The notes below the pieces were generated by a model. That model had not been told where the DNA came from. It saw nothing but the letters and a program-made list of their open reading frames with translations, and did not search any database. From NCBI GenBank assembly GCA_963667085.2, contig OY762975.1, forward strand, positions 655,578-719,577: a DNA stretch of 64,000 bases, given 5' to 3'. Positions 24,545 to 48,108 of the stretch are shown here, one piece after another (position 1 is the stretch's first letter; each line of letters begins with the position of its first letter). The position numbers and the translations under genes are program-made. The DNA is from Acidimicrobiales bacterium. GTDB lineage: Bacteria > Actinomycetota > Acidimicrobiia > Acidimicrobiales > Bin134.

Positions 24545-24550
24545 TCTAGC

Positions 24551-25363
24551 TCACGGTTCCAGCAGCAGCTTCCTCAGAGCATCGACTTCGGCTTGGGAGA
24601 GCGAGAGCTGATCCTGGGCATAGGCGTCAATGCCCCCGAAATCATGGTCGATGACGTCAAGCGCCAGCTCGATGTAGTCAGACTTCGCCAACCCCAACGC
24701 CAAGAGCACGTCGCGTGACTCCTCGGGGTACTCGGCCAGCCGAAGCTGAAACGTGCTGGACTGATCGGTCAGCCGATCATTGGTAAGCATGTAGTCCTCG
24801 ACTATTTGCCCACGATCAACTCCGAGGATCGACAGAATGACCGCGGCCGCCACACCAGTCCGGTCCTTGCCTCCCGCGCAATGAAACAGGACCGGGGAGC
24901 GATCGACGATGGAGCGGATCAGCACGGCGAACGCCGCGCTGCCTATCTCAGCAATATGCCGATAGGAATCGAGGAGTATCTGGTGGGCGTCCTCCCGGGT
25001 CAGCTCCCCGGCAATCAGTGACTCCATCACCTCGCCCGCAGTTCTTTCCCCTCGGCCGAATGGAGCAGACACAACGGTTGCTCCGGGAGGAAGCCTCGAT
25101 GGTCGGGCCTCGACCTCCTCGGAGCTGCGGAAATCAACGATGGTTTGGACTGATCGCTTCTCGAGTTCGGCCAGGTCGAGGGCGCTGAGATCGGCAAGGT
25201 CGTCAGATCGGTAGGCGAGGCCGAACTTCACCGACTGGCCGTTCGCGGTGGTCGCACCGCCCAGGTCTCGGACATTGAGGGCGCCGTCAAAATGGAGAAT
25301 CCGGCGAAGATGCAGCGGCGTGGGGCTGGCAGCGCCATCGGGTTTGTTGGAGTTAGGGGGCAT
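24551..25363 (-). CDS. MptpB-like atypical tyrosine/dual-specificity phosphatase (Y_phosphatase3-type)
   Basis: NVRDLGG entry motif and P-loop HCAGGKDRTG (CX5R). No signal peptide. ATG 25363 is preceded by GGAGAGGAA. Confidence 0.8.
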   Translation of the reverse strand: MPPNSNKPDGAASPTPLHLRRILHFDGALNVRDLGGATTANGQSVKFGLAYRSDDLADLSALDLAELEKRSVQTIVDFRSSEEVEARPSRLPPGATVVSAPFGRGERTAGEVMESLIAGELTREDAHQILLDSYRHIAEIGSAAFAVLIRSIVDRSPVLFHCAGGKDRTGVAAAVILSILGVDRGQIVEDYMLTNDRLTDQSSTFQLRLAEYPEESRDVLLALGLAKSDYIELALDVIDHDFGGIDAYAQDQLSLSQAEVDALRKLLLEP

Positions 25364-25377
25364 ATTCCTCTCCACAT

Positions 25378-28300
25378 TCAAAGGTCGGATCGAGCAATGG
25401 CCCGATCATCTGTTCCCAGATAGCTGGCAATGACGAGCGGATCGGCCCGCACCTGGTCGGGGCTGCCTTCAGCGATGACCTGCCCGGCTTCCAAGCAGTA
25501 GACATGATCGCTCACGCTCATGATCAGCGGCATGTCGTGCTCGATGATCAGCATCGACGACTGGAGTTCGCTGTTGATGCTCACCAGCAGCGGGCCGAAG
25601 GCCTCAGCCTCGCGCTGGGCCACGCCTGCGGTGGGTTCGTCGAGGCACAGCAGGTGGGCGTCGAGGGCTAGGAGGCCGCCGATTTCAACGATGCGCCGCG
25701 TTCCGGTCGACAGATCGCCCACATAGGAATCGCCATAGCGGCCCAAGCCAAGGAAGTCGATGATCTCGGTGGCGGCGCTTCTCTGGGCCCGGGAAATCCT
25801 GGTCGAGGCGGGGAGGCAGGCAGCAGTGGCCAGGATCGGCGTCCGCTCCCGGGCCTCAAGGGCCACCTCCACGGTTTCGCGCACGGTGAGCTCGGGAAAC
25901 AGGGTCGCCCCTTGGAACGTCCGGCCCAAACCGAGCATGGCGCGCCGGTGCGGAGCCAGGCGGCTGATGTCCGTTCCATCGAGCCTGATCTGGCCGACGG
26001 CCGGGACGAACCCCCCGACGGCATTCATAAACGTCGACTTGCCCGCACCGTTGGTTCCGATGAGCCCGACGATGCGGTTGGGCGGGATCGATAGCGACGC
26101 TCCGTCCAGAGCCTGGTTGCCGCCAAACGCCACCGACAGATCATTGGTTTCGAGAACCGGGTGGCCGCCGTCAGACCGGACGCGATGCGACGCGGGCAGC
26201 CGGACCGAACCCTGAGCTCCCTTCGGAGGCGCCGACAGTCCATAGCGGTTCTCCGCCCATCTCAGCCCTGACGACCGCCACGAATAGAGGATCTGGACGA
26301 AGCCGCCAGGGAAGTACATCACCACCAGCAAGAGCCCGATGCTGGATGTGAACAGCGCCACCACACTGCTGTTATTGAACAGGGATGGGAGCCCCTCGAT
26401 CCACAGGGCGCCAAGCACCGGCCCGATGATCGTGCCAAGACCTCCGATCACCACGATGCCGACCAGCCTGATCGAATCGTCGACGGTGAAGAACCGCTCG
26501 GAAAGCGGGATGCTTTGGACCAAACCGGCGAGCACCGCCCCGCCGAGGCCCACGATGCCGCCGGCCAGTGCGAAGGCCGATAGCTTCATGCGAGTGGAGC
26601 TAACGGTGTAGGCCGACGCGGCCTCGACGTTGTCTCGAATGGCAATGGTCCCCCGCCCGACTCCGGATCGGCGAAGCCGCTCCAAGATGAAGAGGACAAC
26701 AGTGAGAAGTACCAGGCAGAAGTAGTAGTAGTTGCGCTGGCTGGCCAGGTTGATGCCGAACAAGTCGCCCCGCATGAACGGGACGGTGCGAGGGTTGCCG
26801 TCGGAAAAAATCGGTCGCCGGAATATGTAGAGCGACGCGGCCAAGGCCAGCACCAGGGTCGTGACGGCCAGCATGAGTCCTTGCACCCGAAGAGCGCCCA
26901 CGCCCACTACCGCGGCCAGCAACGCAGTAAGCAGGGGCGCGATGAACACGGCCAGCGCAAACGGTATGGGGTCGGCGGTGAAATCGATGAACCAGAAGTC
27001 CATCTCGATGCCGCGGGTCAACGCGGCGGCGGTGAGCGCGCCGATTCCGGCGAAGCTCATCTGGGCCAGCGAGACCTGGCCCGACCATCCGGTGATGACG
27101 GTGAGCGAACTGGCACACAGCGCAAAGGCCAGAACCGACGCGTAGGCCAGATTCCGGCTCGGCTGGGTGATGATTAGCGGCAGCATAATCAACGCCAAGA
27201 GCCCGACTCCGAACCCGATCCGGCTCATGTGGCGTATCCACCAAATCTGGCGGAGGTGGTCGGGTATTGGGGGGATCTTTGGGGTGAACGAGAACGACTC
27301 GGTCGACAGGCGCTGGCTTCGCTGCAAAGCCACCGCGCCCAACACGGCCAGCAGCAGCAGGAATTCGAACAACCCCGGCTGGTCAAGGAAGTTGAACTGA
27401 ATCGTGAACTCGATGATGCCTAGATAAATGCCGGCCGCCATGGCCCGGGGAAACGAGGTCATCCCTGCGATCGCTGCGGCAACCAGGGCCCGAGCCAGAG
27501 TGGAGGCGCCAAGCCCCCCGAGGTTAGACACGCTGCCGCTCTGCCCCGACAGCAGAACGATGGCAATCGTGGAGATGAGTCCGGCCATCACCCACACGAA
27601 CGTTGAGACCACTTTCGGGTTGACGCCCGCCAGCCGGGAAAGGTCGGAGTCTTCGGCCGCGGCGGCCACGTTCTTGCCGAACCATGTGCGGTTGAGCACC
27701 AAATAGAGGCCGAGCGCCACAAGCGGGACCGCAACGAGGATGGTGAGCTGGGTACCGGAAACACGGATCCCCTTGGGCTCGCCCCCGCCCGATACCAGCG
27801 CGAGCACCCCGAAGGTCACCGCCAACCCGACGACCCATGTACTCAGCCAAGTGTTTCGCCGACTCGAGCGGTCTTTGTGGGTACGGAGCGCCAGCAGCCC
27901 CCAGCCCACCGCGGCGATCACCGCCGGGGCAGCAAGCACCGTCCAGAGCTGGACTTCGCTCACCCCCAGTGCTTCGAACGGCCGCCAACTGGCCGAGGTC
28001 ACCACCGGATAGCGCCGAATTCCCTTGACGTCGAGCTCGGGGTACGTCAGCGGGATCACTTGGCATAGCTGGGCCACCCCCACCGTGGCCACCAGCAAAA
28101 TGACCCTGGGCGAGCGGAACAGCCGCCGGATGACGGTGAGCTCGACGATTCCCCCGAACACCGCGCCCATCACCAGAACCAGGGCCACCGCCACCCAAAA
28201 CGGGAAGTTGTATTGAAGCACGAGCAGTGGCAACAGCATTCCGCCGATCAGTCCCATGTTCCCTACTGCGAAGTTGATCACCTTCGTCGATCGAAACGTC

Positions 28301-28404
28301 AGCACGATCCCCATGGCCAACAGCCCGATGACGATGCCCGTGACCGCGCCGTTGAACATCACCTGGGGGTTGATTCGGCTGGCGGCGAGAACGGCCGAGA
28401 ACAT
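25378..28404 (-). CDS. fused branched-chain-type ABC importer: LivH permease + LivM permease + LivG ATPase in one polypeptide
   Basis: 1008 aa. The N-terminus is LivH-like (FNGAVTGIVIGLLAMGIVLTFRSTKVINFAVG). The middle is LivM-like (LTVITGWSGQVSLAQMSFAGIGA). The C-terminus is an NBD with GTNGAGKST, LSTGTRRIVEI and LCLDEPTAGV. Confidence 0.9.
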   Translation of the reverse strand: MFSAVLAASRINPQVMFNGAVTGIVIGLLAMGIVLTFRSTKVINFAVGNMGLIGGMLLPLLVLQYNFPFWVAVALVLVMGAVFGGIVELTVIRRLFRSPRVILLVATVGVAQLCQVIPLTYPELDVKGIRRYPVVTSASWRPFEALGVSEVQLWTVLAAPAVIAAVGWGLLALRTHKDRSSRRNTWLSTWVVGLAVTFGVLALVSGGGEPKGIRVSGTQLTILVAVPLVALGLYLVLNRTWFGKNVAAAAEDSDLSRLAGVNPKVVSTFVWVMAGLISTIAIVLLSGQSGSVSNLGGLGASTLARALVAAAIAGMTSFPRAMAAGIYLGIIEFTIQFNFLDQPGLFEFLLLLAVLGAVALQRSQRLSTESFSFTPKIPPIPDHLRQIWWIRHMSRIGFGVGLLALIMLPLIITQPSRNLAYASVLAFALCASSLTVITGWSGQVSLAQMSFAGIGALTAAALTRGIEMDFWFIDFTADPIPFALAVFIAPLLTALLAAVVGVGALRVQGLMLAVTTLVLALAASLYIFRRPIFSDGNPRTVPFMRGDLFGINLASQRNYYYFCLVLLTVVLFILERLRRSGVGRGTIAIRDNVEAASAYTVSSTRMKLSAFALAGGIVGLGGAVLAGLVQSIPLSERFFTVDDSIRLVGIVVIGGLGTIIGPVLGALWIEGLPSLFNNSSVVALFTSSIGLLLVVMYFPGGFVQILYSWRSSGLRWAENRYGLSAPPKGAQGSVRLPASHRVRSDGGHPVLETNDLSVAFGGNQALDGASLSIPPNRIVGLIGTNGAGKSTFMNAVGGFVPAVGQIRLDGTDISRLAPHRRAMLGLGRTFQGATLFPELTVRETVEVALEARERTPILATAACLPASTRISRAQRSAATEIIDFLGLGRYGDSYVGDLSTGTRRIVEIGGLLALDAHLLCLDEPTAGVAQREAEAFGPLLVSINSELQSSMLIIEHDMPLIMSVSDHVYCLEAGQVIAEGSPDQVRADPLVIASYLGTDDRAIARSDL

Positions 28405-28406: not shown

Positions 28407-30629
28407 CTAGCCGCCCTCCTCTCCCAGGAACACCGCCCGGGCAATGTCGTCGCGCTCGGCCAATTCGGCGGTTCGCCCCTCGAACCGCACCTCGCCCTTC
28501 TCCAAGAAGACAGCCCGCTCGGCAATGGACAGGGCCACGTTCAAAGACTGCTCGACGATGATCATGGTCTGGCCCGTCTCCTTCAATGTCTCGACCAGCT
28601 CGAGAAGCTCAGCCACCACCCCCGGCGCCAGCCCGAGCGACAGCTCATCGATGAGCAGGATCTCGGGCTGGTGGAGCATCACCCGGGCCAGGGCCAGCAT
28701 CTGCTGCTGGCCGCCGGACAGGTCGCCGGCCAACTCCTGTTGCCGGTTCTTCAGCATGGGGAACAGCTCGTACACGTAGTCGAGCCTCTGCTCCAGGGCA
28801 GCCCGATCCTGGCGGTAGTGGCCGGCGCCCACCAGGATGTTGTCGGCGATCGTCATCGACCGAAACACCCCGCCACCGCCGGGGAGCATCTGGATGCCCA
28901 TGGCCACTCGCTGCTCTGGAGTGGCGAAGGTGATGGTGCGGCCGTTGAAGCGGACGATTCCCCTCTCCGGCGTGTTCAATCCGGTGACCACCTTGAGAGC
29001 GGTCGACTTGCCTGCTCCGTTGGTTCCCAAAAAGGCCAGGGTCTCGCCCTGTTGCACCTCGAAGCTGAGGTCGAACAGCACTTGCACTTGGCCATAGCTG
29101 AAGTCGACGTTGTGGAGTTGCAGCGCGGGTATGGTGGCACCCGGCTCGGTCCGACGCTGCTGCTCTTCCTCTTCTTCTTTGAGCTCGGACACCACCAGCG
29201 ACAAGTCCCGCCGCATCCGGCTCGCCCCACGCATGATGTAGAAGGCGCCGAGGGGCATGGCGATCACCGTGATCGTGATGATCGTGGACCGCTCCCCGAT
29301 CTCGTCTTGCAAAAGGGAGGCGAGGAGACCACCGCCCACCGCGCCGATGGCGAACATGAAGAACAAGATGATGGCCATCCCCATGCCGCGCAGCCGGTAG
29401 GGAAGAACCGTCTGCACCGCGGGTCCGATCATCGAGAACGACGCCCCCAGAAGCGTCCCGTTCACCACCGCCCAAGCCACGAACAGATAGACGTTGGGCA
29501 TGAAGTACTGGATGGGCACCGTTACCGTCAGCGGGAACAGCAGTGAGCCGAGAATGCGCAGAGCCCGGTTGGGATCGCGTTTGAACGTCTGGTCGAACCG
29601 CTTGCCGATGAACGGCAGGAACAGCAGCAGGCCAAAGGCGGTCGGCGATATGGCCAACCCCCGCTCAAAGGCGTCCAAGCCGAACTCCTCCTCCAGGAAG
29701 AAGCTCTCAATGGAACTGGCCGGAAAGAGCGCGAAGCCCAGCGCTGCCAGCGCGATGGTCATGTACCGGATGGTGTCGATACGCCAGATCCGGGCAAAGG
29801 CAGCTTCTACGGAGATCTCGATGCCGTCGTCGGTGTCGAGGCCCTTGCCGAGAACCTCGCGCTTTTCCCATTGGCCCCGCTCGGGCTCGGGTAGGCGCAG
29901 GGCATAGAACCCCATCACTGCTATGGGGATGCTGAGAACCAGATAGGCCCAGCGCCATCCCTCATCGCCCCCGGCAACGGTGGCCACCGCGCCCACCAGG
30001 ATCGGACTGATCGTTCCGGCCACGCGGGAGATGCTCTTCTCCAAGGCGTACATGCGGCCCCGGATGGCAATCGGGTAGGCATCGGCCAGCAACGTAGGGT
30101 GGATGGTGAGGCTGTTGGCCTTGGCGATGCCGGCGCCGAAGCGCAGCCAGAACAGCATGAATGCGCTCACCGCCAGCCCGGTGGCGAAGGAGAAGAACGA
30201 GAACACTATGGTGGCGATGGCCACGATGGGGGTTCGCCGCATGCGGTCGGCCAGCCAGCCCATGGGGGCGGCGCCAAGCATCAAGAAGGCAGCCGCCGCC
30301 ACCGAGATGAAGGTGATGGTGCCGTCGGAGACGTCGAATGTTTCGGCAATGTCGGGGCCCAGAACGCTGAGCGCGGCACCCTCCAGTTCGTCGAAGGCTT
30401 CGATGGCGGCCAGGGTGCCGAACGTGATCATCCCGCCCCGGCGGAGGCCGTCCCGCAGGCCCATCTCCTCAACGCCAACGCCGGGCAACGCGGCATCCTC
30501 ATACACCACATCTCGCTTGGCAGCCTGCGCGGCGTACAGCCGGGTCTCTTCGTTGTCAAGGATGGTGGAGCTCAGAAGGGAGGCGGCATTCTGATTCGGG
30601 TTGTCTGGGGCATTCCCTTCGACGGCCAC
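28407..30629 (-). CDS. chimeric MFS-transporter domain + LivF-type ABC ATPase
   Basis: 740 aa, GTG start. The N-terminal roughly 480 aa is polytopic with MFS motif A (GWLADRMRRTP). An E-rich linker (ELKEEEEEQQRR) follows, then an NBD with GTNGAGKST, LSGGQQQMLALAR and LLIDELSLGLAP. Its stop is 2 nt from the LivHMG start. Confidence 0.85.
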   Translation of the reverse strand: MAVEGNAPDNPNQNAASLLSSTILDNEETRLYAAQAAKRDVVYEDAALPGVGVEEMGLRDGLRRGGMITFGTLAAIEAFDELEGAALSVLGPDIAETFDVSDGTITFISVAAAAFLMLGAAPMGWLADRMRRTPIVAIATIVFSFFSFATGLAVSAFMLFWLRFGAGIAKANSLTIHPTLLADAYPIAIRGRMYALEKSISRVAGTISPILVGAVATVAGGDEGWRWAYLVLSIPIAVMGFYALRLPEPERGQWEKREVLGKGLDTDDGIEISVEAAFARIWRIDTIRYMTIALAALGFALFPASSIESFFLEEEFGLDAFERGLAISPTAFGLLLFLPFIGKRFDQTFKRDPNRALRILGSLLFPLTVTVPIQYFMPNVYLFVAWAVVNGTLLGASFSMIGPAVQTVLPYRLRGMGMAIILFFMFAIGAVGGGLLASLLQDEIGERSTIITITVIAMPLGAFYIMRGASRMRRDLSLVVSELKEEEEEQQRRTEPGATIPALQLHNVDFSYGQVQVLFDLSFEVQQGETLAFLGTNGAGKSTALKVVTGLNTPERGIVRFNGRTITFATPEQRVAMGIQMLPGGGGVFRSMTIADNILVGAGHYRQDRAALEQRLDYVYELFPMLKNRQQELAGDLSGGQQQMLALARVMLHQPEILLIDELSLGLAPGVVAELLELVETLKETGQTMIIVEQSLNVALSIAERAVFLEKGEVRFEGRTAELAERDDIARAVFLGEEGG

Positions 30630-30679: not shown

Positions 30680-30783
30680 TTTGTCTACACTCATCGAAAA
30701 TATTGCGAAATTCGGGTGGACCGCCACGAGGAGTCGCCGTTTTTCGCTACGTTGTGACCACCACAGTGACTTTGGAGGTTCAA

Positions 30784-32214
30784 GTGTTCAAACGGCTTCT
30801 TGGAGTGCTCGTCGCTCTTTCGCTCATATTCACCGCCTGTGGCGGCGACTCAGATTCCGACTCTTCCGACGACACTCCGGCCGCGCCGGCCACTAGCGCG
30901 CCCGAACCCGAAGCCGACGAGCCGGCCCCCGCGCCCGAGCCCGACGACGAGGAACCAGCCCCCGAACCCGAAGCCGACGAGCCGGCCCCCGCGCCCGAGC
31001 CCGACGACGAGGAACCAGCCCCCGAACCCGAGCCCGAGGCGACTCCAGTGCCGCTGACCGCCTCATTCCGAGGGGTGACCGAAACAGAGATCCGCATCGG
31101 CATGACCTCCCTCAATGCCGAGATGTTCGGATTCGACCAGGGCGACCTGGCCTCCAAGTGGCAGGTGGCTGTGGACGCGGTGAACGCCGCCGGCGGAATC
31201 AACGGCCGGATGCTCGTTCCCTTCATTGATGTCCTCGACGTCATCGGAACAGTGGAGGCCGACGCCACCTGCGTGAAGTTCGTAGAAGACAAGATGGTCT
31301 TCGCCTTCGTCGGTTGGCTTCGCGAGGACAACGAGCTCTGCTACACCGAGCGCAACAACACCATCGCCGTCAACGGCAACGATGTGACACCGGAGGCCAT
31401 CAGCCGCTCCAATGGCCTGCTCTTCGCCACCGAGGCCACCAAGTTGGGAATCCAGCGTAACTTGATCGCCGCCGCCGCGGCCGACGGGCTCATCGATGGC
31501 AAGAGGGTCCACTTCAGCATCTTGGCCAGCGAAGACTCTCTCACCGACCCCCTCATCGAAACGCTAGAGGCTCACGGCGCCACCATCACCTCGGTGAGCA
31601 GGGTGACCGCGGTCGACGACGTGCAGGCCGCCGAGGCCAACCACGACGTGATCGTCCAGCGGATCGCCGATGAGGATCCTGATTTGGTGTATTCGCTGGA
31701 GCCTTCGCTCATGTCTGGGGCCATGATCAGGGCGGGGATCGACATCCCGCAGATCACCAGCGAGTCTAACGAAGACCTCTACCTGAACTTGGGCGTCGAT
31801 CCCACCGCCATCCAGCTTCACGTGTACGCACCGGCGCAGATTAAGACGTTCTGGGACCGGGGGGACGATCCCCTGCTCAATGAGTGCGTGGAAAATTACA
31901 ACAACGCTCAGATCACCGACGAGGACGGGAATGTCGAACAGGTCAACGTGACCGAAGATCCCAGCCAGCCCATCAACCTCGATCTGGTGGTCAGGGCCTG
32001 TCAGACGGTCTGGCTGTTCGCCGCCATTGCCACCGCCGCTGGCCCCAACCTCACCAACGAGACATTCCTGGAGGCGGCGGCCAACCTCGGGCCGATCGAC
32101 CTGCCGGGCATGTCTGCGGCTTCAATGAGCGAGGGCAAGATAGGCGCCGACGACTCCCCGCTGGTCAAGGTGATATGGGATGCCGAAAAAGAGGAGTTTG
32201 TGTCAGCCGGCTGA
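30784..32214 (+). CDS. LivJ-like (Peripla_BP_6-type) ABC substrate-binding lipoprotein with Pro/Glu/Asp-rich tether
   Basis: GGAGG sits 5 nt before GTG 30784. Lipobox IFTACGG, then an acidic PE/PA tether. The core GVTETEIRIG...VNAAGGINGR is typical of HAAT-family binding proteins. Confidence 0.85.
   Translation: MFKRLLGVLVALSLIFTACGGDSDSDSSDDTPAAPATSAPEPEADEPAPAPEPDDEEPAPEPEADEPAPAPEPDDEEPAPEPEPEATPVPLTASFRGVTETEIRIGMTSLNAEMFGFDQGDLASKWQVAVDAVNAAGGINGRMLVPFIDVLDVIGTVEADATCVKFVEDKMVFAFVGWLREDNELCYTERNNTIAVNGNDVTPEAISRSNGLLFATEATKLGIQRNLIAAAAADGLIDGKRVHFSILASEDSLTDPLIETLEAHGATITSVSRVTAVDDVQAAEANHDVIVQRIADEDPDLVYSLEPSLMSGAMIRAGIDIPQITSESNEDLYLNLGVDPTAIQLHVYAPAQIKTFWDRGDDPLLNECVENYNNAQITDEDGNVEQVNVTEDPSQPINLDLVVRACQTVWLFAAIATAAGPNLTNETFLEAAANLGPIDLPGMSAASMSEGKIGADDSPLVKVIWDAEKEEFVSAG
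30901..31031 (+). repeat. perfect 60-bp in-frame tandem duplication (2.2 copies) inside the binding-protein tether
   Basis: 30901-30960 and 30961-31020 are identical base for base. The next 11 nt start a third copy. The unit encodes PEPEADEPAPAPEPDDEEPA. Confidence 0.95.
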
Positions 32215-33044
32215 TGGGCATCGACGTCTTCAAGCAGCTCGTTCCCGTTGGGGGCACCAAAAACCTGCGCGACCTCGGTGGCCTGCGAACCGCCGAGGGC
32301 CGCGTGGTTCGCAGCGGAGTCCTCTTCCGCTCCGACACCCTCCACGAGGCCGATAGCGACGACCTGGCCCGGCTCGGCTTGGCGTGCGTGGTCGATTTCC
32401 GCAGCGAGGCGGAGGTGGAGCGCCGTCCCGACCGACTCAATGGCCTCGCCGTGCGCTGGGTGAATCTGCCCATCGACAACCCCCGAAGCCCAACTGCCCT
32501 TTTCGGGGATAGGCAAGACCAACAGGATGTGTCCGAGCTCCGGGCGGAGATCATCCATCACTGGCTCAACCAGGACTTCGACGCGGTGCTCAAACTCATT
32601 GACGAGCTGGGCCTCGACATCCCAGCCGACCGGGTAGAGCGTTATGTGAGCTTTGCCGCCGATTTCGCTCCGGTGTTCGCTGGGTTCTTCGCCGAGTTGG
32701 TGGCGATTTCGGGCCAGCCCTTGCTCTTTCACTGTGAGGGGGGGAAGGATCGCACAGGAGCGGCCGCTGCCATGCTGCTCGGCGTTCTGGGCGTGGACCG
32801 CGACACAGTGGTTGCGGACTACCTGGCCACCAACACTGTGGTGGCCGACGAACTGGAAGAACAGCGTCGGCTGGCTCCCGAATCACTTTGGCCGATTATG
32901 GACGCCCACGAATCGCAGATAGAGGCGTTCCTAAACCACATCGACAACGAGCTCGGCGGCATGGACTCCTACGCCCGCTCGCACCTCAATCTCACCGGCG
33001 AGACAATCGCCCAGCTCAGATCGACTTATCTCCGCCCCGCATAG
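32214..33044 (+). CDS. MptpB-like atypical tyrosine/dual-specificity phosphatase (paralogue of 24551-25363)
   Basis: ATG 32214 overlaps the binding-protein stop (TGATG). KNLRDLGG motif, P-loop HCEGGKDRTG, no signal peptide. Confidence 0.85.
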   Translation: MGIDVFKQLVPVGGTKNLRDLGGLRTAEGRVVRSGVLFRSDTLHEADSDDLARLGLACVVDFRSEAEVERRPDRLNGLAVRWVNLPIDNPRSPTALFGDRQDQQDVSELRAEIIHHWLNQDFDAVLKLIDELGLDIPADRVERYVSFAADFAPVFAGFFAELVAISGQPLLFHCEGGKDRTGAAAAMLLGVLGVDRDTVVADYLATNTVVADELEEQRRLAPESLWPIMDAHESQIEAFLNHIDNELGGMDSYARSHLNLTGETIAQLRSTYLRPA

Positions 33045-33048
33045 CGGT

Positions 33049-34248
33049 TCAGTGCGTGGCCCGGCGGTGGCGGTGGGCGGTGAGTTGGGCGGTGAGCTCA
33101 TCGGGAGGCGTCTTGTTGGCCAGGGCCTCGAGCACCAGGTCTTGCTGTGACGGGGGCGTGAGACCGCCGATGGGCACGTCGCGGTCGAGGTTGGTGGGAA
33201 AGGCATAGCCCTCGGCGCTGGCCGCCACTACGCAGGCGATGACTGTGGGATCAAGTCCTTCTTCTTGGCGGCGCAACAGCACCGGGTAGATGGCGTTCAC
33301 GATGCGCTCTCGGTCTACGGCTTCGGTGGCCCGGCCCATGGCCGAGGAGATTTGCAGCAGGTTGGCCATCCGCCGCACGTCGGACGTTCGGTTGTGGCCC
33401 CCGGCGTGGAACACCGCGGGGCTGAAGAACACCAGGTCGCCCTTGTCCAGTTCGATCTGTACGTGGTGTTCGGCGAAGTACTCGATCAACTCGGAGCGCC
33501 GCCACGCCAGGTAGCCCAGCTCGTACTTGTGGGAGTGGGGTAACAGCATGGTGGCCCCCGTCTCCGGCGGCATGTGGCAGTGGGCTACTCCTCCCTGCAA
33601 GGTCAGCAGCGGCGACAGGCGATGGGCGTGGATCGGATAGCGCTCGGCCACCTCGTCGGTCATGAACCCCACGTGGTAGTCCCGGTGGGGCATCTGGGCC
33701 GCGCCGCCGGGATTGATGGCGTTCACTTGGGCGGTGATCTGGTAGCCGGGACCGAGCCAGGCCAGCGAGGCCAGGTCGATCATGTCGCTCCCGTGGTAGT
33801 CCACGAAGACCTCAGGGTCGGCCACGGCCAGCTTCTCCAGCGCATTCCACAACCGGTCGTTGGCACCGGGCTCGGCGTAGTGGTCTCCCCCACCGGTTCC
33901 GGCCTCGCGCTCGTCGGCGATGATCTGCTCGAACACCTCGGTGGCCCGATCCACCACCGAGTGTTCGATGGCCCCGATGATCACGATCACCCCCGGTCCG
34001 TCGTAAAGGGCTCGAGTCAGCTCGTTGCGAACGGCGGCGGCCTGGTCGAGATCGCGCAGACAACCCCGTAGCTCTTCGGAGCGGTACACCAGCGCCCGGT
34101 CCACCACCCGGTCAGCCAGCGGGTATTCCTCCAGAGCAACCTCAACCTCCACAACGGAGCGCAACTCGCCAAGATCGAACCCCTGCCTGCTCGTAACCGC
34201 AGCGTCCCCCGCGGTGACTCGGTTGGGGTCGAGCGGTGCGGTGGTCAT
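33049..34248 (-). CDS. phytanoyl-CoA dioxygenase (PhyH)-family Fe(II)/2-oxoglutarate oxygenase
   Basis: HxD facial-triad element (MPHRDYH), distal His (FHAGGHNRT), PhyH-like length and pattern. Confidence 0.65.
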   Translation of the reverse strand: MTTAPLDPNRVTAGDAAVTSRQGFDLGELRSVVEVEVALEEYPLADRVVDRALVYRSEELRGCLRDLDQAAAVRNELTRALYDGPGVIVIIGAIEHSVVDRATEVFEQIIADEREAGTGGGDHYAEPGANDRLWNALEKLAVADPEVFVDYHGSDMIDLASLAWLGPGYQITAQVNAINPGGAAQMPHRDYHVGFMTDEVAERYPIHAHRLSPLLTLQGGVAHCHMPPETGATMLLPHSHKYELGYLAWRRSELIEYFAEHHVQIELDKGDLVFFSPAVFHAGGHNRTSDVRRMANLLQISSAMGRATEAVDRERIVNAIYPVLLRRQEEGLDPTVIACVVAASAEGYAFPTNLDRDVPIGGLTPPSQQDLVLEALANKTPPDELTAQLTAHRHRRATH

Positions 34249-34263
34249 GCTGGATTCCCTCAG

Positions 34264-34338
34264 CGCGCTTGGAGGGACTCGAACCCCCGGCCTTCTGATC
34301 CGTAGTCAGACGCTCTAATCCAACTGAGCTACAAGCGC
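34264..34338 (-). tRNA. tRNA-Arg (anticodon ACG)
   Basis: The reverse complement folds as a cloverleaf: acceptor GCGCTTG/CAAGCGC, D-arm GCTCAGTTGGATTAGAGC, anticodon loop CTACGGA, T-arm GGGGGTTCGAGTCCCTC. No encoded CCA. Confidence 0.9.
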
Positions 34339-34376
34339 GGGCTGCACCAGTGTACTCAGCCCCTTGGACATGGTTG

Positions 34377-40678: not shown

Positions 40679-40712
40679 ATCAGTGGCTTTTCTTGCCGCG
40701 GGCGCTCCTTCG

Positions 40713-41421: not shown

Positions 41422-42930
41422 ATGAGCCGCACCAAGCTGCGCACTTTTGCTATCGCGTTCATCGCGCTGCTTGCCCTGGTCGCAACAGCGTGCAGCAGTT
41501 CGGAGGATGCCGAGGAACCTCGAGCTGCCGAGCCAACGCCAACCAGCGCCCCAGCTCCTGCTGATGAGCCCGCACCCGAGCCTGAACCCGCGCCGGCCGA
41601 CGAACCTGCCGACGTACCGGCCCCCGAACCCGAGCCCGCCGATGAACCAGCGGATGAACCTGCGGACGAGCCTGTCGACGAACCGGAGCCCGAGCCGACG
41701 GCTGCTCCCACTCCGATCCCAGTGCCCGAAGGATCGACGGTGGGCATTACCGATGACACCATCAAGATCGCCGTCTTGCGCAGCGACAGCAAGTCGCTCG
41801 AGGAGGCGGGCATTCTCCCCGACACCGGCGACATCCCGCGCAACTACGAGGTCTTCGCCGAGCAGGTCAACGCCCGGGGAGGCGCGGGCGGACGCAACAT
41901 CGAAATCGTGTTCCACGCCTATCCACCGGGGGCGTCGGCCACCGACCAGCAGGCCGCCTGCATTGCAGCCACCGAGGACGATCAGGTGGCCGTCGTCCAC
42001 TTTGTGGGCGGGGTGGCGGCCGAGACCGTGCTGTGCGCCACTGAGGGCCATGAGCGGATCGCCTACATGCTGTCGGGCATCCTGCCCCAGGAGATATACA
42101 ACCGCTCCAACGGGCGGCTGTTCTCCCAGGCCATGACCACCGAGCGACTCGTGGGGGCTTGGCCTACCGTGGCGGAAGCCCAGGGCTTGCTGGAAGGCCA
42201 AACGCTCGGGCTCATGCGGGGCGACATCGGCGAGCACGAGGTGGCCGCTGGTGTGCTCAAGGGGGCGCTGGCCGACGCTGGATACGAACTCGCCGACGAG
42301 GTGGCCCTGCCCTGTCAAGGCACTTCCTGCTCTCAGGTCGACATCGGCTTGGAGCGCATGCAGGCCGCAGACGTGGACACGGTGTTCTCCCTGTTGCCCC
42401 CCTCGCCGTTCGGAATCGCGGTGTTCCTGGGCGCTCAGGCGGGCTGGGAACCGCAGTGGCTGGTCAGCGATATTGAGAATCTGGTGTATGCCTCGGTAGC
42501 CCAGGCGGTGTATCAGCGGAACGCCGATCCCACTCTCTTCTACGGCTTGTACGGCCTGAGCTACGGCCTCGACCGGCTGAGTCCCGACGAGCACACCATC
42601 GAGTGCAATGCCGTCTTCACCGAGGTCACCGGCATTTCCTACGACGCTGTCGAAAACGAAGACGCCTGGAGCGCGGTGGGCAGCACCTGCATGTTCATCA
42701 AGAACCTGGAGGCGGCAGCCAACTGGTCTCAGGAGACGTATGGCACCGTGAACCAGACCACGCTCATCCAGGGCTTCGAGACGCTCACCGACTACAAACT
42801 GGGCGACATCACCGGCTCGTGGAGCGCCACCAAGCACGACGCCCCCGACGCGATCACGCTCAAGGAGTACCGGGCCGATTGCGCCTGCTGGGTGGAGATC
42901 GACGGCGCTCGGATGCTGCTCGATCAATAG
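41422..42930 (+). CDS. LivJ-like ABC substrate-binding lipoprotein (paralogue 2) with Pro/Glu/Asp-rich tether
   Basis: Lipobox LVATAC, tether PAPADEPAPEPEPAPADEPADVPAPEPEPADEPADEPADEPVDEPEPEP, core GITDDTIKIAV...VNARGGAGGRNIEIV. Confidence 0.85.
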   Translation: MSRTKLRTFAIAFIALLALVATACSSSEDAEEPRAAEPTPTSAPAPADEPAPEPEPAPADEPADVPAPEPEPADEPADEPADEPVDEPEPEPTAAPTPIPVPEGSTVGITDDTIKIAVLRSDSKSLEEAGILPDTGDIPRNYEVFAEQVNARGGAGGRNIEIVFHAYPPGASATDQQAACIAATEDDQVAVVHFVGGVAAETVLCATEGHERIAYMLSGILPQEIYNRSNGRLFSQAMTTERLVGAWPTVAEAQGLLEGQTLGLMRGDIGEHEVAAGVLKGALADAGYELADEVALPCQGTSCSQVDIGLERMQAADVDTVFSLLPPSPFGIAVFLGAQAGWEPQWLVSDIENLVYASVAQAVYQRNADPTLFYGLYGLSYGLDRLSPDEHTIECNAVFTEVTGISYDAVENEDAWSAVGSTCMFIKNLEAAANWSQETYGTVNQTTLIQGFETLTDYKLGDITGSWSATKHDAPDAITLKEYRADCACWVEIDGARMLLDQ

Positions 42931-42973
42931 CCGAGCTCTTTTGGACTGACGGCGCTTGGAGCCATCTGAAGGG

Positions 42974-45175
42974 ATGACCGAATCCCCCAGGTCGGAGACC
43001 CCGGCGGATCTGGTCGCCAGGGTCTTCGACGAAGAGGACCGCCGCCAACAAGAGATCGCCGCCGCCGAGGCCGCCCAGCGCGGGCCGGAGGGCAGCTTCG
43101 ACGCCGAACAGCTCACGCTGCGCCAGGGCCTGCGCCGGGGCGGGAAGGGGTTGATCGGGTTCATCGGCCTGCTCGGGTTCGTGGAGACGCTGGAGACGTC
43201 GGCCTTTGCGGTGATCGCCCCCGACATCCAGGAGTCGCTCGACGTTTCCGACGGCACCATCGGCGCCATCGGGGGCGCCTTCGGCATCTTGTTCCTGCTG
43301 GGCTCCATCCCGCTGAGCTCGCTGGCCGACCGCATGCCCCGCAAGCTGGTGGTGGGGGCGGCAATGTCGCTGTGGTCTGTCGTGGTCATGGTGACCAGCG
43401 CCATTTCCAATGCGTTCTTGCTGTTCATCGCCCGTATGGGCGCCGGACTGGGGCAGTCGTACTACATCCCGGTGGCCGGGCCCATGCTGATGGACGGCTA
43501 CCCCATCGGGGCCCGGGCCAAGATCTTCGCTCTGAACGGCTGGTTCCAGATGGCCGGCCAAGCCCTGGGCCCGCTGGTGGCCGGGCTGGTCGTGCTCATC
43601 GCCACCGGCGACGACGGTTGGCGGTGGGTGTTCCTCACCATGGGGGTCATGGGCATTCCCTTGGCGATCAGCGCCTTCTTTGTGCGCGAGCCCCGGCGGG
43701 GCAGCCACGAGATGCAGGCCGTGCTCGGCCAAGAACTGGAGCAATCCGATGACGAGCTGCCCATCTCGCTGTCGGTGGCCTTTGAGCGGCTCCGCAAGAT
43801 CAAGTCGTTCTACTACTACCTAACCGGCATGGCGGCCATCGGCTTCGCCATATTCACCACCATCATCTTCATCAACCTCCATCTGGAGGAGCACTTCGGG
43901 CTGTCCGCGTTCGAGCGGGGCGTCTTTGGATCGCTCACCGTTTTGCCCGGCTTCGTGGGCGCCGCGGTGTCGGGCAAGCGGGCCGACGCCCTGTTCAAAG
44001 AGCACCCCTCCCGGGCCATGGTCTTCATCGGCATCCTCGTCGTCACCTTCGGCGCCATCCAAGTAGTGGGGATATGGATGCCCGCGGTCTGGCTGCTCGG
44101 GATATTTCTGGGGGCCTCCAACGCCTTTGCGCGGGCCGCCTTCGCCATCCTGCCGGGCGTGATCGCCTCGGTCATCCCCTACCGGCTGCGATCCCGGGGC
44201 ACCGCGCTGGTGGGCATCTACATGTTCTTGTTCGGCGCGTTTCTGGGCGCGGTGATCACCGGCATGCTCAGCGATGTCCACGGCGAGCAGACCGCGCTCA
44301 CCATCGTGATCCTGCCCGCCACGCTGGTGGGGGGATCGCTCATGGCCTACGGCTCCCGGTTCATCGAGGGTGACATTGCTTTGGTCATTGAAGAACTGCA
44401 CGAGGAGCAAGACGAGGCCGAGCGCCTGAAGGCCGCCGATGCCGCGGACATCCCGGTGCTCCAAGTGCGCAACCTGGACTTCTCCTACGGCAAGGTGCAG
44501 GTGCTGTTCGACATCGGCTTTGAGGTACGCCGAGGGGAGTCCCTGGCCTTGTTGGGCACCAACGGCGCGGGCAAGTCCACGGTGTTGCGAGTGGTGAGCG
44601 GATTGGGGGTGCCCCAACGCGGCGTGGTGCGGCTCCACGGGCGCACCATCACCTATGCCGACCCGGGGATGCGGGCCAAGATCGGCATCGTGCAGTTGGC
44701 CGGCGGCAAGGCCGTCTTCCCCGGCTTGTCGGTGGAGGAGAACCTGCGCATGGCCGGGTTCCGCTACCGCTCCGGCGAGCTCGAACCCCGCTTGGAGCGG
44801 GCCTACGACCTGTTCCCGGTGGTCGCCGAGCGCCGTTCGGCCGTGGCCGGGGAGTTCTCCGGCGGGCAGCAGCAGATGCTGTCGCTGGCCATGGCGCTCA
44901 TGCACGACCCGGAGATCTTGATGATCGACGAGCTGTCGCTGGGTTTGGCCCCGGTCACCGTGCAGTCGCTGTTGGAAGTGGTGGAGCGGCTCCGCGACGA
45001 CGGGCAGACCATGATCATCGTGGAGCAGTCGTTGAACGTGGCCCTGGCCGTGGCCGACCGGGCCATCTTCTTGGAGAAGGGGCAGATCCGCTTTGAGGGG
45101 CCGACCCAGGAGCTGGCCGAGCGGGATGACCTGGCCCGAGCCGTCTTCCTCGGACAGTCGGGATCGGGCGGCTGA
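42974..45175 (+). CDS. chimeric MFS-transporter domain + LivF-type ABC ATPase (paralogue 2)
   Basis: Same architecture as 28407-30629: MFS motif A (SSLADRMPRKL), acidic linker EELHEEQDEAERLK, and an NBD with GTNGAGKST, FSGGQQQMLSLAM, LMIDELSLGLAP. Start is ATG 42974 or TTG 42956. Confidence 0.85.
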   Translation: MTESPRSETPADLVARVFDEEDRRQQEIAAAEAAQRGPEGSFDAEQLTLRQGLRRGGKGLIGFIGLLGFVETLETSAFAVIAPDIQESLDVSDGTIGAIGGAFGILFLLGSIPLSSLADRMPRKLVVGAAMSLWSVVVMVTSAISNAFLLFIARMGAGLGQSYYIPVAGPMLMDGYPIGARAKIFALNGWFQMAGQALGPLVAGLVVLIATGDDGWRWVFLTMGVMGIPLAISAFFVREPRRGSHEMQAVLGQELEQSDDELPISLSVAFERLRKIKSFYYYLTGMAAIGFAIFTTIIFINLHLEEHFGLSAFERGVFGSLTVLPGFVGAAVSGKRADALFKEHPSRAMVFIGILVVTFGAIQVVGIWMPAVWLLGIFLGASNAFARAAFAILPGVIASVIPYRLRSRGTALVGIYMFLFGAFLGAVITGMLSDVHGEQTALTIVILPATLVGGSLMAYGSRFIEGDIALVIEELHEEQDEAERLKAADAADIPVLQVRNLDFSYGKVQVLFDIGFEVRRGESLALLGTNGAGKSTVLRVVSGLGVPQRGVVRLHGRTITYADPGMRAKIGIVQLAGGKAVFPGLSVEENLRMAGFRYRSGELEPRLERAYDLFPVVAERRSAVAGEFSGGQQQMLSLAMALMHDPEILMIDELSLGLAPVTVQSLLEVVERLRDDGQTMIIVEQSLNVALAVADRAIFLEKGQIRFEGPTQELAERDDLARAVFLGQSGSGG

Positions 45176-45177: not shown

Positions 45178-48108
45178 ATGCTGGCAGCCGCACACGCTGT
45201 GCTGGGCACCGTCGACACATCGCTCGGTGCAATGGGCACAGTGCTGGCGTTCACCTTCAACCGCCAGATCGTCTTCAACGGGCTGGTCACGGGGATCACC
45301 TACGGGGTGATGGCCGTGGGCCTAGTGCTGATCTTCCGGTCCTCGCGGGTGATCAACATCGCCCACGCTGAGGTAGGGGCATTCGGGGGGGCGCTTTTGG
45401 GGCTGCTGGTGGCCAAGTACGGCGTGCCCTACCCGATAGCGCTCATCGCCGGGCTGGCCTCAGGGGCTGCATTCGGCGGGATCATCGAGCTCACCGTGGT
45501 GCGGCGCCTGGCGCAGGCCCCCAAGGTGATCTTGTTCGTGGCCACCATGGGCGCCGCGCAGGTGGTGTTCCTGGCCGGATTCTGGCTGCCCAACTACACC
45601 GCCATCGCCAACTTCCCCACCCCATTCGACGGCCGCTGGGAGCTGTTCGACATCAGGATTCGCAGCGCGCAGTTGCTGGTGCTGATCGTGGTACCGGTGA
45701 TCGTGGCCGTGCTGGCGCTGTTCTTGGAGCGCACCAAGTACGGCACCGCCATCCGAGCCTCGGCCGAGAACCCCGATGCCGCCCGGCTGTCGGCCATCAG
45801 CACCAAGGCCATGTCCACCGCGGTGTGGACCATTGCCGGGTTGCTATCGGCCATCACCGCGGTGCTAGTCGCCCCGCTCAAGGGCCAGGGCACGGTGATA
45901 GAGGCGGCCACGCTGGGGCCGGGGCTGTTGCTTCGGGCCCTCGCTGCGGCGCTGATCGCCCGAATGCACTCGCTGCCTGCCGCGCTCTTGGCCGGCACGG
46001 TGATCGGCGGGGTCGAGGCGACGCTGCTGTTCAACTACTTCGACGAGCCGGGGCTGATCGACGCGGGGCTCTTTGTGGCCATGCTGGTGGCGGTGCTGTC
46101 GTACCACCGGCGACAGCGGGGCGGCGAAGGGGCTCAGTCGATGTCGTTCGCCCCCCGGGTGCGACCGGTGCCCCGCCAACTGCAACAGCTCTGGTGGGTG
46201 CGCTATCTGCCCCAGATCACCGTCACCGTTGCGCTGGCGGTGGCCATCGTGCTCCCGCTGATCGTGACCCGCCCGTCCCGCCATTTCCTCTACTCCCTCA
46301 TGCTGCTGTTGGCCATCGTGGGCATGTCGCTCACCCTGCTCACCGGCTGGGCCGGGCAGCTCTCGCTGGGGCAGTTCGCCTTCGCCGGACTGGGGGCCAT
46401 GCTCACCACCGCGATGGTGCGGGGCGTGAGCTTCTCCATCGGCGACAGCGACTTCGAGCTACCGGTGGTGCCATTCGAGGGGGCGGTGTTTCTGGCCGCC
46501 TTCGCCTGCCTGGTCACCGCGGTGGTGGTGGGATTGCCCGCGCTGCGCGTCCGGGGGCTGTTTCTGGCCGTCATCACCCTGGCCTTCGCGGTGATGGCCC
46601 AAAACTGGCTGCTCGAGCGCGACGTTCTCACCGGGGGCGACTTGGTGGTGCGCCTGCCCCGGGCCCGGTGGGGCGACACCTTCGACCTCAAGTCGCAGCG
46701 CACCTACTACTACGTGTGCCTGGCGGCGCTGTGTTTCTGCGCCATCTTGGTGAGCCGCATCCGCCGCAGCGGGGTGGGCCGGTCGCTCATCGCGGTACGC
46801 GACAACGAGCAGAGCGCGGCGGCGTTCACCGTGTCGCCCACTCGGATGAAGCTGGTGGCGTTCGCGATCTCCGGGGCGCTGGCCGGACTGGCCGGCGGGC
46901 TCATCGCCGGGCTTCGGGTGCAGTTCGGGCCCACCGCGTTCTCCCCCGATGAATCGCTGCGGGTGGTGGCCATCGCCGTCATCGGCGGACTGTCGTCGAT
47001 CTGGGGGGTGATCCTGGGCGCGCTGTGGGTGGTGGGCATCCCGTCGTTCTTCGCGGAGTCCGAGCAGGTGCGCCTGCTCACCTCGGGGGCGGGCGTCCTG
47101 ATTCTGCTCATGTATCTGCCCGGCGGGCTGATCCAGGTGGCCTATTCGATTCGCGACGCCATCTTCGCCGCCGCGGCCAAGCGGATCCCCGATACCACCG
47201 AGGAGCGGGCACCCGCCCCCATCCCTGCTCGAGCGGTTTCGGCCGCCGTGGCCGACCGGGCTACCCCGACCGGAGTGCCCGCCCTCGCCACCAGCGGCGT
47301 GTCGGTGCAGTTCGGCGGGGTGCATGCGGTGGAAGACGTCGACCTCTGTGTGCAGCCGGGGGAGGTGGTGGGCCTCATCGGCACCAACGGGGCGGGCAAG
47401 ACCACGCTGATGAACGCCGTCGGGGGGTTCGTGCCGTCGGTTGGCCAAGTGGAGATATTCGGCACCAACGTGACCCGATTCTCCCCCAGTCGCCGGGCCA
47501 GCCTGGGGCTGGGTCGCACCTTCCAGCAGGCCGACCTGTTCCCCGACCTCAGCGTGCGGGAGACCATTCAAGTAGCGCTGGAGGCCCGGGGCCGCTCCCA
47601 GGTCATCCCCACCTTGCTGGCGCTGCCCAGCGCCAAGCGCCGGGAGCGCACCCGTCAGGCCGAGGGCGACGAGCTCATCAGCTTCTTCGGTCTGGGGCGC
47701 TACGCCAGCTCGTTCATCAGCGAGCTGTCCACCGGCACCCGGCGCATCGTGGAGCTGTCGTGCCTCATCGCGCTGGAGGCCCGGGTGCTGTGCCTCGACG
47801 AGCCCACCGCCGGGGTGGCCCAGCGGGAGACCGAGGCATTCGCCCCGCTGGTGCTGCGCATCCGCGAGGAGCTGGGGGCGTCGCTGCTGGTGATCGAGCA
47901 CGACATGCCCTTCATCATGGGCATCAGCGACCGGGTGTACTGCCTGGAAGCCGGAGCCATCATCGCCGAGGGCACCCCCGATGAGGTGCGCAACGACCAG
48001 CTGGTTGTCGCCAGCTATCTGGGCACCGACGAGCGGGCCATCGCCCGCAGCGGTGCAACCGCCCTCCGTGACAGACTCGATCCCAGGGAGGAACCCAGCC
48101 ATGACTGA
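45178..48108 (+). CDS. fused LivH + LivM + LivG ABC importer polypeptide (paralogue 2)
   Basis: 976 aa, collinear with 25378-28404. NBD motifs GTNGAGKTT, LSTGTRRIVEL, LCLDEPTAGV. Starts 2 nt after the MFS-NBD stop. Confidence 0.9.
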   Translation: MLAAAHAVLGTVDTSLGAMGTVLAFTFNRQIVFNGLVTGITYGVMAVGLVLIFRSSRVINIAHAEVGAFGGALLGLLVAKYGVPYPIALIAGLASGAAFGGIIELTVVRRLAQAPKVILFVATMGAAQVVFLAGFWLPNYTAIANFPTPFDGRWELFDIRIRSAQLLVLIVVPVIVAVLALFLERTKYGTAIRASAENPDAARLSAISTKAMSTAVWTIAGLLSAITAVLVAPLKGQGTVIEAATLGPGLLLRALAAALIARMHSLPAALLAGTVIGGVEATLLFNYFDEPGLIDAGLFVAMLVAVLSYHRRQRGGEGAQSMSFAPRVRPVPRQLQQLWWVRYLPQITVTVALAVAIVLPLIVTRPSRHFLYSLMLLLAIVGMSLTLLTGWAGQLSLGQFAFAGLGAMLTTAMVRGVSFSIGDSDFELPVVPFEGAVFLAAFACLVTAVVVGLPALRVRGLFLAVITLAFAVMAQNWLLERDVLTGGDLVVRLPRARWGDTFDLKSQRTYYYVCLAALCFCAILVSRIRRSGVGRSLIAVRDNEQSAAAFTVSPTRMKLVAFAISGALAGLAGGLIAGLRVQFGPTAFSPDESLRVVAIAVIGGLSSIWGVILGALWVVGIPSFFAESEQVRLLTSGAGVLILLMYLPGGLIQVAYSIRDAIFAAAAKRIPDTTEERAPAPIPARAVSAAVADRATPTGVPALATSGVSVQFGGVHAVEDVDLCVQPGEVVGLIGTNGAGKTTLMNAVGGFVPSVGQVEIFGTNVTRFSPSRRASLGLGRTFQQADLFPDLSVRETIQVALEARGRSQVIPTLLALPSAKRRERTRQAEGDELISFFGLGRYASSFISELSTGTRRIVELSCLIALEARVLCLDEPTAGVAQRETEAFAPLVLRIREELGASLLVIEHDMPFIMGISDRVYCLEAGAIIAEGTPDEVRNDQLVVASYLGTDERAIARSGATALRDRLDPREEPSHD

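Follow-up and report, generated by a model that had tools for sequence, protein, structure and literature searches.

What is a complete transporter domain of the major facilitator superfamily (MFS) doing on the same polypeptide as an ATPase of an ATP-binding cassette (ABC) importer? The question is raised by a gene in a stretch of 64,000 nucleotides from an Acidimicrobiales bacterium (assembly GCA_963667085.2, contig OY762975.1, positions 655,578 to 719,577). This whole stretch is called the window hereafter, and positions are counted from its first letter. The gene, at 28407..30629 on the minus strand, joins an N-terminal MFS domain to a LivF-type nucleotide-binding domain (NBD), and a diverged paralogue with the same fusion lies at 42956..45175 on the plus strand. 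We find that the MFS-LivF fusion is real, strongly conserved and common in Acidimicrobiia. By component content, each of the two gene cassettes (cassettes 1 and 2) encodes a binding-protein-dependent ABC importer of the HAAT (Liv/Urt) type.

Structure of the fusion protein

The cassette 1 gene has a GTG start and is a single open reading frame (ORF), uninterrupted for 740 aa plus stop, as claimed in an initial annotation made from the sequence alone. Every motif quoted there is present: MFS motif A, GWLADRMRRTP, at aa 124-134 in the loop between transmembrane helices 2 and 3 (30228..30260, minus strand), ELKEEEEEQQRR at aa 482-493, GTNGAGKST at 535-543, LSGGQQQMLALAR at 637-649 and LLIDELSLGLAP at 658-669. 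Four parts follow one another along the chain, all encoded on the minus strand: an N-terminal cytoplasmic extension (aa 1-62, 30444..30629) with a helix predicted at 11-39 in the AlphaFold2 (AF2) secondary structure, the MFS domain (aa 63-470, 29220..30443), a linker (aa 471-500, 29130..29219) and a LivF/UrtE-type NBD (aa 501-740, 28410..29129), the latter identified by NCBIfam, PDB and Foldseek matches.

The annotation had predicted that Pfam would place MFS_1 at the N-terminus and ABC_tran at the C-terminus, and this is what we obtained in both copies. MFS_1 scores 109.3 bits in cassette 1 and 136.6 bits in cassette 2 (cut-off 33.4 bits) over the N-terminal 60% of each protein, and ABC_tran scores 97 and 89 bits, respectively (cut-off 25 bits), over the C-terminal third. 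Could the N-terminal domain nevertheless be a permease of the LivH/LivM type? This candidate is rejected, as Pfam found no BPD_transp_2 match in the N-terminal part of either fusion protein, and MFS_1 stands far above its threshold.

The membrane topology, for which a prediction had been proposed, bears out the assignment. In the AF2 model, built on an alignment of 79 sequences, the MFS region (predicted local distance difference test, pLDDT, 85.8; predicted template-modelling score, pTM, 0.81) folds into 12 transmembrane helices, arranged 6+6 around a central cytoplasmic loop: 67-98, 102-129, 132-150, 156-184, 187-219 and 225-243 in the first bundle, and 285-316, 320-351, 353-375, 380-408, 411-444 and 446-469 in the second. 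An acidic helix (472-494) then runs without a break from the twelfth transmembrane helix into a canonical NBD. Within the linker, 47-79 diverse members show no variation at D475 and at least 90% conservation of E485. Since the termini of the MFS domain are cytoplasmic, an NBD attached to its C-terminus comes to lie on the side of the membrane where it belongs. With a pTM of 0.77, the model of the whole 740 aa (pLDDT 83.2) is above the expectation for a random orientation of the two domains, which suggests that they adopt a defined arrangement. No PDB chain matched both domains, the best query-normalised template-modelling score (TM-score) being 0.31, for the NBD alone.

For the NBD, the best NCBIfam models are UrtE (TIGR03410, 181-193 bits, with 193 for cassette 1, against an equivalog cut-off of 285.8) and LivF (NF008626, 173-174 bits against 441). 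With scores so far under the equivalog cut-offs, we describe the domain as LivF-like rather than as an orthologue of LivF or UrtE. Its best solved match is 1ji0, a soluble LivF-type protein (E 1e-49, Foldseek TM-score 0.91), in agreement with the LivF-like character first attributed to it.

The importer and its second ATPase

In the two cassettes, the stop codon of the fusion gene is separated by 2 nt from the ATG of a gene encoding LivH, LivM and LivG on one chain (TAG-CG-ATG and TGA-AC-ATG). In cassette 1, this triple-fusion gene (25378..28404, minus strand) encodes 1008 aa with two BPD_transp_2 domains, ABC_tran and BCA_ABC_TP_C, and its best NCBIfam models are LivG and UrtD; in cassette 2 (45178..48108, plus strand) it encodes 976 aa with the same domains, among them the BCA_ABC_TP_C tail specific to LivG. 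Compared with its cassette 2 counterpart, the LivH part of the cassette 1 protein is lengthened by an insertion of about 70 aa, which breaks the BLAST alignment into two segments. The two fusion proteins themselves (740 and 739 aa) are collinear end to end and 42% identical, with 35% identity in the MFS domain and 61% in the NBD.

On the basis of the 2-nt junction, the initial annotation had proposed that the fusion protein provides the second ATPase of the importer. Two observations strengthen this proposal: the LivH-LivM-LivG chain carries a single NBD, and a comparison of the NBD ORFs of the window found no free LivF elsewhere in its 64 kb, so that the fusion protein is the only candidate. 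Two ORFs considered as redundant free LivF genes (6624-7625 and 50176-52146) were discarded, being only 27-31% identical to the fused LivF, and a free NBD considered as LivF at another locus (L079) is an unrelated ABC-F-like protein.

Each cassette also has a gene for a substrate-binding protein (SBP). That of cassette 2 (41422..42930, plus strand) lies upstream of its MFS-LivF gene on the same strand, and matches Peripla_BP_6 above cut-off (37.9 bits). That of cassette 1 (30703..32214, plus strand, exact start uncertain) is transcribed divergently and encodes a putative lipoprotein. Its Peripla_BP_6 match is weak (24.5 bits, under the Pfam cut-off), and it has a homologue in the bona fide Peripla_BP_6 SBP found in a Streptomycetaceae cassette (E 4e-23). 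A lipobox-like LIFTAC is followed by a Pro/Glu/Ala/Asp-rich spacer; such a long low-complexity spacer after a lipobox-like Cys is found in both binding proteins (about 30790-31060 and about 41490-41720), where it gives spurious Trypan_PARP and SslE matches. A search of the PDB gave no informative relative of either (best E 0.095).

Taken together, the genes describe an importer that consists of only two polypeptides and a binding protein, with LivH, LivM and LivG on a single chain of about 1,000 aa. The LivH-LivM-LivG chain supplies both permease domains and one ATPase, while the MFS-LivF chain supplies the second ATPase, which would pair with LivG on LivH-LivM. As LivF is fused to the C-terminus of the MFS domain, one MFS domain would thereby be held, 1:1, beside each LivH-LivM.

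Distribution and gene layouts

A search of 5.8 billion proteins (E < 1e-10) returned at least 1,128 matches to the MFS-LivF protein, drawn from NCBI, ENA, JGI and Logan assemblies, including closed chromosomes of long-read metagenome-assembled genomes (MAGs) and cultured isolates. Apart from two truncated fragments, the best 120 of these are 706-767 aa long and carry both PF07690 and PF00005. Their database names are only automatic ones, 'MFS transporter' or 'ATP-binding protein', and such labels, on thousands of proteins, hide subunits of Liv-type importers.

An artefact joining two adjacent genes, through misassembly, a frameshift or faulty gene calling, is therefore rejected, and its probability is in our opinion negligible. 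The second copy had already been used as an argument against it; to the two diverged copies are now added more than 1,100 full-length homologues in independent assemblies and the mark of purifying selection on both halves and on the linker. The ratio of non-synonymous to synonymous substitution rates (dN/dS), calculated by the Nei-Gojobori method between the fusion gene and ten orthologues, is 0.03-0.15 in the linker, where D475 moreover never varies.

We also surveyed one genome per GTDB species by scanning with the MFS domain alone. This yielded 80 loci, all in Acidimicrobiia (Ca. Poriferisocius, Aldehydirespiratoraceae, Microthrix, Iamiaceae and Sva0996); the window itself shares about 95% identity with a closed chromosome of a Ca. 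Poriferisocius MAG. In every locus whose sequence reaches past the fusion gene (77 of 77), the next gene is LivH-LivM(-LivG), LivH being split off in one of them and another being cut by the contig end. Several genomes possess two loci apiece and the second copy of the window belongs to a third, more diverged group, which brings the number of cassettes to at least three per genome in the sponge-associated Poriferisocius.

Cultured carriers, which are potentially tractable hosts, include Ilumatobacter fluminis (WP_166657336.1), Streptomycetaceae bacterium NBC_01309 (L082, CP108400.1; gene order SBP, MFS-LivF, LivH-LivM-LivG) and Embleya sp. NBC_00888 (L090, NZ_CP108785.1). The latter two, both Streptomycetaceae, lie outside Acidimicrobiia, the home of nearly all other members. 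In a neighbour-joining tree, the MFS domain of the streptomycetacean fusion P0351 groups with Acidimicrobiales sequences, and horizontal transfer of the cassette into Streptomycetaceae fits this picture.

The position of LivG is variable. Besides the layout of the window, in which LivG is on the permease chain, a profile of the deepest fused members (22-28% identical in MFS to the window protein) revealed layout B, in which proteins of about 960-1,090 aa comprise the MFS domain, a LivF-type NBD and a LivG-type NBD with BCA_ABC_TP_C. The gene sits immediately 3' of a fused LivH-LivM gene (Aquihabitans, L081 7001-10021 and L083 7001-10090), and the next gene encodes a weakly SBP-like protein of about 565 aa with no Pfam match. 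In layout C (L088, 5615-10559), the order is SBP, MFS-LivF, LivH-LivM and a free LivG. LivG is thus free, on the permease chain or on the MFS-LivF chain, while MFS-LivF and LivH-LivM are constant in all three layouts. The tandem of LivF and LivG on one chain in layout B is an independent sign that the two NBDs are partners, and adds to the case for MFS-LivF as the second ATPase.

The two ATP sites

The fused LivF retains an invariant Walker A (GTNGAGKST), the Asp-Glu of Walker B (IDE) and the LSGGQQQ signature. Its Q-loop, however, departs from that of ordinary relatives. In cassette 1 it reads P583-G584-G585-G586-G587 (28869..28883, minus strand), and the pattern is L-P-G-G-x-G in 77 of 77 loci and V-P-G-G-x-G in layout B. 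Walker B reads DEL, again in 77 of 77 loci, and the Embleya protein too has PGG and DEL. By contrast, a P-E/Q-G(D) Q-loop and a DEP Walker B characterise a comparison set of six, made up of 1ji0 and five ordinary LivF/UrtE proteins (Alpha-, Beta- and Gammaproteobacteria, Streptomyces and a haloarchaeon). In the partner LivG, Walker A, the Gln of the Q-loop, Walker B and the His of the H-loop are all canonical, but the signature has the form LSTG(T/S)RR in 76 of 76 loci and in layout B (LSTGTRR in cassette 1, within 25378-26181, minus strand).

The Gly-Gly Q-loop of LivF and the LSTGTRR of LivG would make the composite site to which they contribute deviant, and leave the other site consensus. 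This suggests that the consensus ATP site is built from the Walker A, Q-loop and H-loop of LivG with the LSGGQQQ of LivF, the reciprocal site being deviant; the latter would bind ATP and hydrolyse it poorly. Heterodimeric ABC transporters with one degenerate site display a similar asymmetric pattern.

Conservation of the MFS domain

The nearest Foldseek neighbours of the MFS domain are SPNS2, DgoT, HnSpns, G6PT and MdfA, with TM-scores of about 0.8 and an identity of about 16%. A phmmer search of the PDB with this half retrieved Spns1, HnSpns, SPNS2 and EmrB at E 1e-7 to 1e-5. The proteins of the Spinster family (Spns, TC 2.A.1.49) are the best PDB sequence matches (16-18% identity), and DgoT, G6PT and MdfA have similar structural scores. 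By these comparisons, the domain is a member of the superfamily with a canonical fold, to which no subfamily could be assigned, and it belongs to no characterised family.

Is it still functional? Were it a decaying remnant, relaxed constraint would be expected, and we observe the opposite. By the measure used above for the linker, dN/dS is 0.04-0.16 in the MFS domain and 0.03-0.14 in the NBD, the least constrained part being the N-terminal extension (0.06-0.44), whereas the values for LivH and LivM (0.08-0.37) are above those of the MFS domain. The MFS domain is also better conserved than LivH and LivM in orthologues at every distance, with 92% identity against 71/77% in a close one (L013) and 62% against 36/48% in a more distant one (L018). 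The remnant hypothesis is therefore rejected.

The conserved residues include those expected of the superfamily. In motif A, D128, R129 and R132 each reach a conservation of at least 90%, and R132 does not vary in 79 diverse members; R163 and G167 of motif B likewise reach at least 90%. Across the 47-79 diverse members, drawn from both layouts, D183/Y185/P186/R190, P209, W225/R226, R323, P353 and P410/R414 are also either invariant or conserved to at least 90%. Judging from constraint, motifs and predicted fold, the domain is maintained by selection as a complete, working module; transport by alternating access is predicted for it. A separate observation concerns one orthologue (L003), in which dS is 0.105 in the MFS part and 0.56 in the linker and NBD parts, which suggests a recombination breakpoint near the domain boundary.

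Relatives of the domain also exist without an ATPase. MFS-only proteins of 434-500 aa from Ilumatobacteraceae, Microtrichaceae and other Acidimicrobiales are 50-62% identical to the fused layout-C clade, and on three independent long contigs no ABC component was found within 8 kb on either side of their genes. Their neighbours encode amidohydrolases, an amidase, hydrolases and acetyltransferases. In particular, on three independent contigs the stand-alone genes (L084-L087) have an Amidohydro_2 or amidase gene beside them, which may be a clue to the solute class of this MFS lineage. A 599-aa protein with no Pfam match, encoded beside the free MFS gene at L084, was considered as an SBP and discarded, having no similarity to any SBP. 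In a neighbour-joining tree of the MFS domain, calculated without support values, MFS-only groups occupy at least three positions inside the fused radiation, a suggestive sign that they are nested within it. Whichever way fission or fusion ran, the module probably works on its own in close relatives.

Role of the MFS domain

The initial annotation had listed three possible roles for the MFS domain: a second translocation path, a sensor or gate, and a membrane anchor for LivF. The list stands, with the third option weakened by the constraint on the domain and by its stand-alone relatives.

As an anchor or assembly scaffold, the domain would only keep LivF at the membrane and in a 1:1 ratio with LivH-LivM(-LivG), as one expression of a lineage-wide trend towards fusion and in a manner comparable to the accessory TMD0 domains of ABCC/TAP transporters. 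The other subunits are indeed fused as well, LivH with LivM in every case and LivG in two layouts out of three, and no surveyed locus has the fusion without an adjoining Liv permease gene. However, 12 transmembrane helices with invariant residues in motifs A and B far exceed what an anchor needs, and the domain is the most constrained membrane part of the system, with a lower dN/dS and a higher identity than LivH and LivM. The autonomy that its stand-alone homologues appear to have, together with this constraint and the fold, also speaks against a purely structural role, and we therefore regard the anchor hypothesis as quite unlikely.

A second scenario makes the MFS domain a sensor or gate, a transceptor that moves no solute and reports substrate, product or membrane energisation to LivF, thereby switching the importer. 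Analogies exist in the trans-inhibition domains of other ABC ATPases and in MFS sensors such as UhpC and Snf3/Rgt2. Conservation is concentrated on the cytoplasmic face and the linker (D128/R129/R132, D183/R190, R280, P353, R414 and D475), the MFS domain is always 1:1 with the motor, and a LivF that lacks the Q-loop Glu/Gln and takes part in a deviant site would fit a regulatory NBD. Against this, all working MFS transporters typically have a conserved cytoplasmic face, the domain revealed no feature dedicated to sensing a ligand, and the stand-alone relatives (50-62% identical) have no ABC or signalling partner nearby, so that the module probably works by itself as an ordinary transporter. 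A role as pure sensor thus seems unlikely to us.

A third scenario is that ATP drives the MFS path itself, either in a self-contained MFS-LivF pump (for example an NBD-mediated homodimer without LivH-LivM), or with the SBP delivering its ligand to the MFS domain. The better conservation of the MFS domain relative to LivH and LivM would be in line with it, as would layout B, in which the whole motor (LivF and LivG) is on the MFS chain, and ArsAB, in which an ATPase turns a secondary carrier into a pump, provides a precedent. But LivH-LivM is always present and under purifying selection, the complementary LivF and LivG motifs found in all layouts favour a LivF-LivG heterodimer over a LivF homodimer, and no coupling helix for an NBD is known in MFS proteins. 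We judge this scenario highly improbable.

The explanation towards which we lean, with a confidence only slightly better than even, is that the MFS domain works as a module of secondary transport and is coupled to the importer, likely as a second path that communicates with the deviant LivF site. It would be a conformationally active module and no passive anchor. Its most likely function would be that of a second, physically coupled solute path, moving the same or a related solute by proton-motive force, or exporting a counter-substrate or product. The alternating access of the MFS domain and the cycle of the deviant LivF site would then influence each other via the linker helix and a network of conserved Arg and Asp residues on the cytoplasmic side.

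Several points weigh against this explanation. We infer both the contact between the MFS domain and LivH/LivM and the communication between the MFS domain and the NBD, and the pTM is an indirect indicator of a fixed inter-domain geometry. MFS sensors that do not transport keep the MFS motifs too, so that these are no proof of transport. The habit of this lineage of fusing Liv subunits (LivH-LivM always, LivG often) also fits an explanation by assembly or stoichiometry. The set of ordinary LivF proteins behind the Q-loop comparison is small (six), LSTGTRR was surveyed in MFS-bearing HAAT cassettes alone, and the tree that bears on fission versus repeated fusion was calculated without support values.

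A more far-reaching form of coupling may also be considered, namely hybrid primary/secondary transport, in which a mechanical or allosteric link through the Q-loop-less LivF would couple the MFS cycle with the ABC motor. ATP and proton-motive force would then be used in one machine, or import by LivH-LivM would be coupled to movement of a second solute by the MFS domain. We find this possible though doubtful; if true, it would be a transport mode described for neither superfamily.

Comparison with known systems

The two cassettes have the same component set as the E. coli LivJ/K-LivHMGF and the UrtABCDE systems (HAAT, TC 3.A.1.4), and the fused NBD shares with HAAT LivF the LSGGQQQ signature and VEQ at the H-loop position. 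They differ from ordinary HAAT systems in the fusion of LivH-LivM(-LivG), in the Gly of the LivF Q-loop, in a Walker B with DEL instead of DEP, and in the LSTGTRR of LivG. Above all, LivF is ordinarily soluble and about 235-255 aa long (240 aa for 1ji0; the LivF/UrtE examples used here measure 235-296 aa from stop to stop), whereas here it is carried on the C-terminus of an MFS domain with 12 transmembrane helices. A PDB sequence search matched no solved structure to the LivH-LivM region, so that HAAT permeases appear to be without a close solved structure, and an importer made of two polypeptides is possibly a convenient target for cryo-electron microscopy.

With Spinster-type and related MFS proteins (SPNS2, Spns1, HnSpns 6e8j, DgoT, G6PT, MdfA and EmrB), the MFS half has in common the fold of 12 transmembrane helices, motif A, the Arg of motif B and the Pro of the fifth helix. 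These proteins, however, have no ABC ATPase attached, and are only about 16-18% identical to the fusion, with phmmer E-values of 1e-7 or weaker.

Secondary-type folds joined to an ATPase are known in ArsAB, which associates the carrier ArsB with the ArsA ATPase, and in KdpFABC, which associates the channel-like KdpA with the P-type KdpB. Both are non-covalent assemblies of other protein families, not homologous to MFS-LivF, and in both the secondary-type subunit is the sole substrate path, whereas a complete LivH-LivM permease is present here in addition. The TMD0 of ABCC/SUR and TAP is an accessory membrane domain of about five transmembrane helices, without a transporter fold; it resembles the present case in being covalently attached to an ABC subunit, and is not homologous. 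In LplT-Aas, an MFS domain is covalently joined to a cytoplasmic enzyme. In known MFS fusions the partner is a kinase or an acyltransferase rather than a motor subunit belonging to a different transporter. The only MFS fusion family listed in PMC3924187 is the Sensor Kinase-MFS Fusion family, TC 2.A.1.34.

The initial annotation had reckoned with an architecture that might prove both common and already described. Common it is in Acidimicrobiia, but neither full-text searches of the literature nor the PDB yielded a functional or structural description of it; InterPro or TCDB may list it. The architecture is recurrent and apparently never studied, although its parts belong to ordinary families. 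The two largest superfamilies of transporters, MFS and ABC, serve as the textbook cases of secondary and primary transport, and here they are covalently and persistently joined, under strong selection across a bacterial class. If the two halves communicate, the fusion would offer a natural system for energy coupling between two transport modes; if they do not, it would still be an unusual accessory-domain solution for the assembly of an ABC transporter.

Flanks of the cassettes

The neighbouring genes (an RpiR/SIS regulator, two Y_phosphatase3, a PhyH, a Baeyer-Villiger monooxygenase and a P450) gave no consistent clue to the substrate. Cassette 1 is bordered on both sides by genes of the tyrosine-phosphatase family Y_phosphatase3 (23621-25381 and 32220-34248), with the RpiR/SIS regulator on one flank and the PhyH-type dioxygenase on the other. 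As PhyH genes likewise flank the layout-C cassette at L088, the Y_phosphatase3/PhyH neighbourhood may hint at the substrate.

Between the two cassettes, a segment of about 7.2 kb (34213-41408) contains a deaminase-like ORF and genes for a membrane protein, a DUF1214-like protein, a flavin monooxygenase, an alpha/beta hydrolase and a small secreted protein. The closest MAG chromosomes (L001 and L002) lack this segment, the cassette 1 flank being joined there straight to the cassette 2 SBP gene, and L004 has part of it. The segment looks like a strain-variable island.

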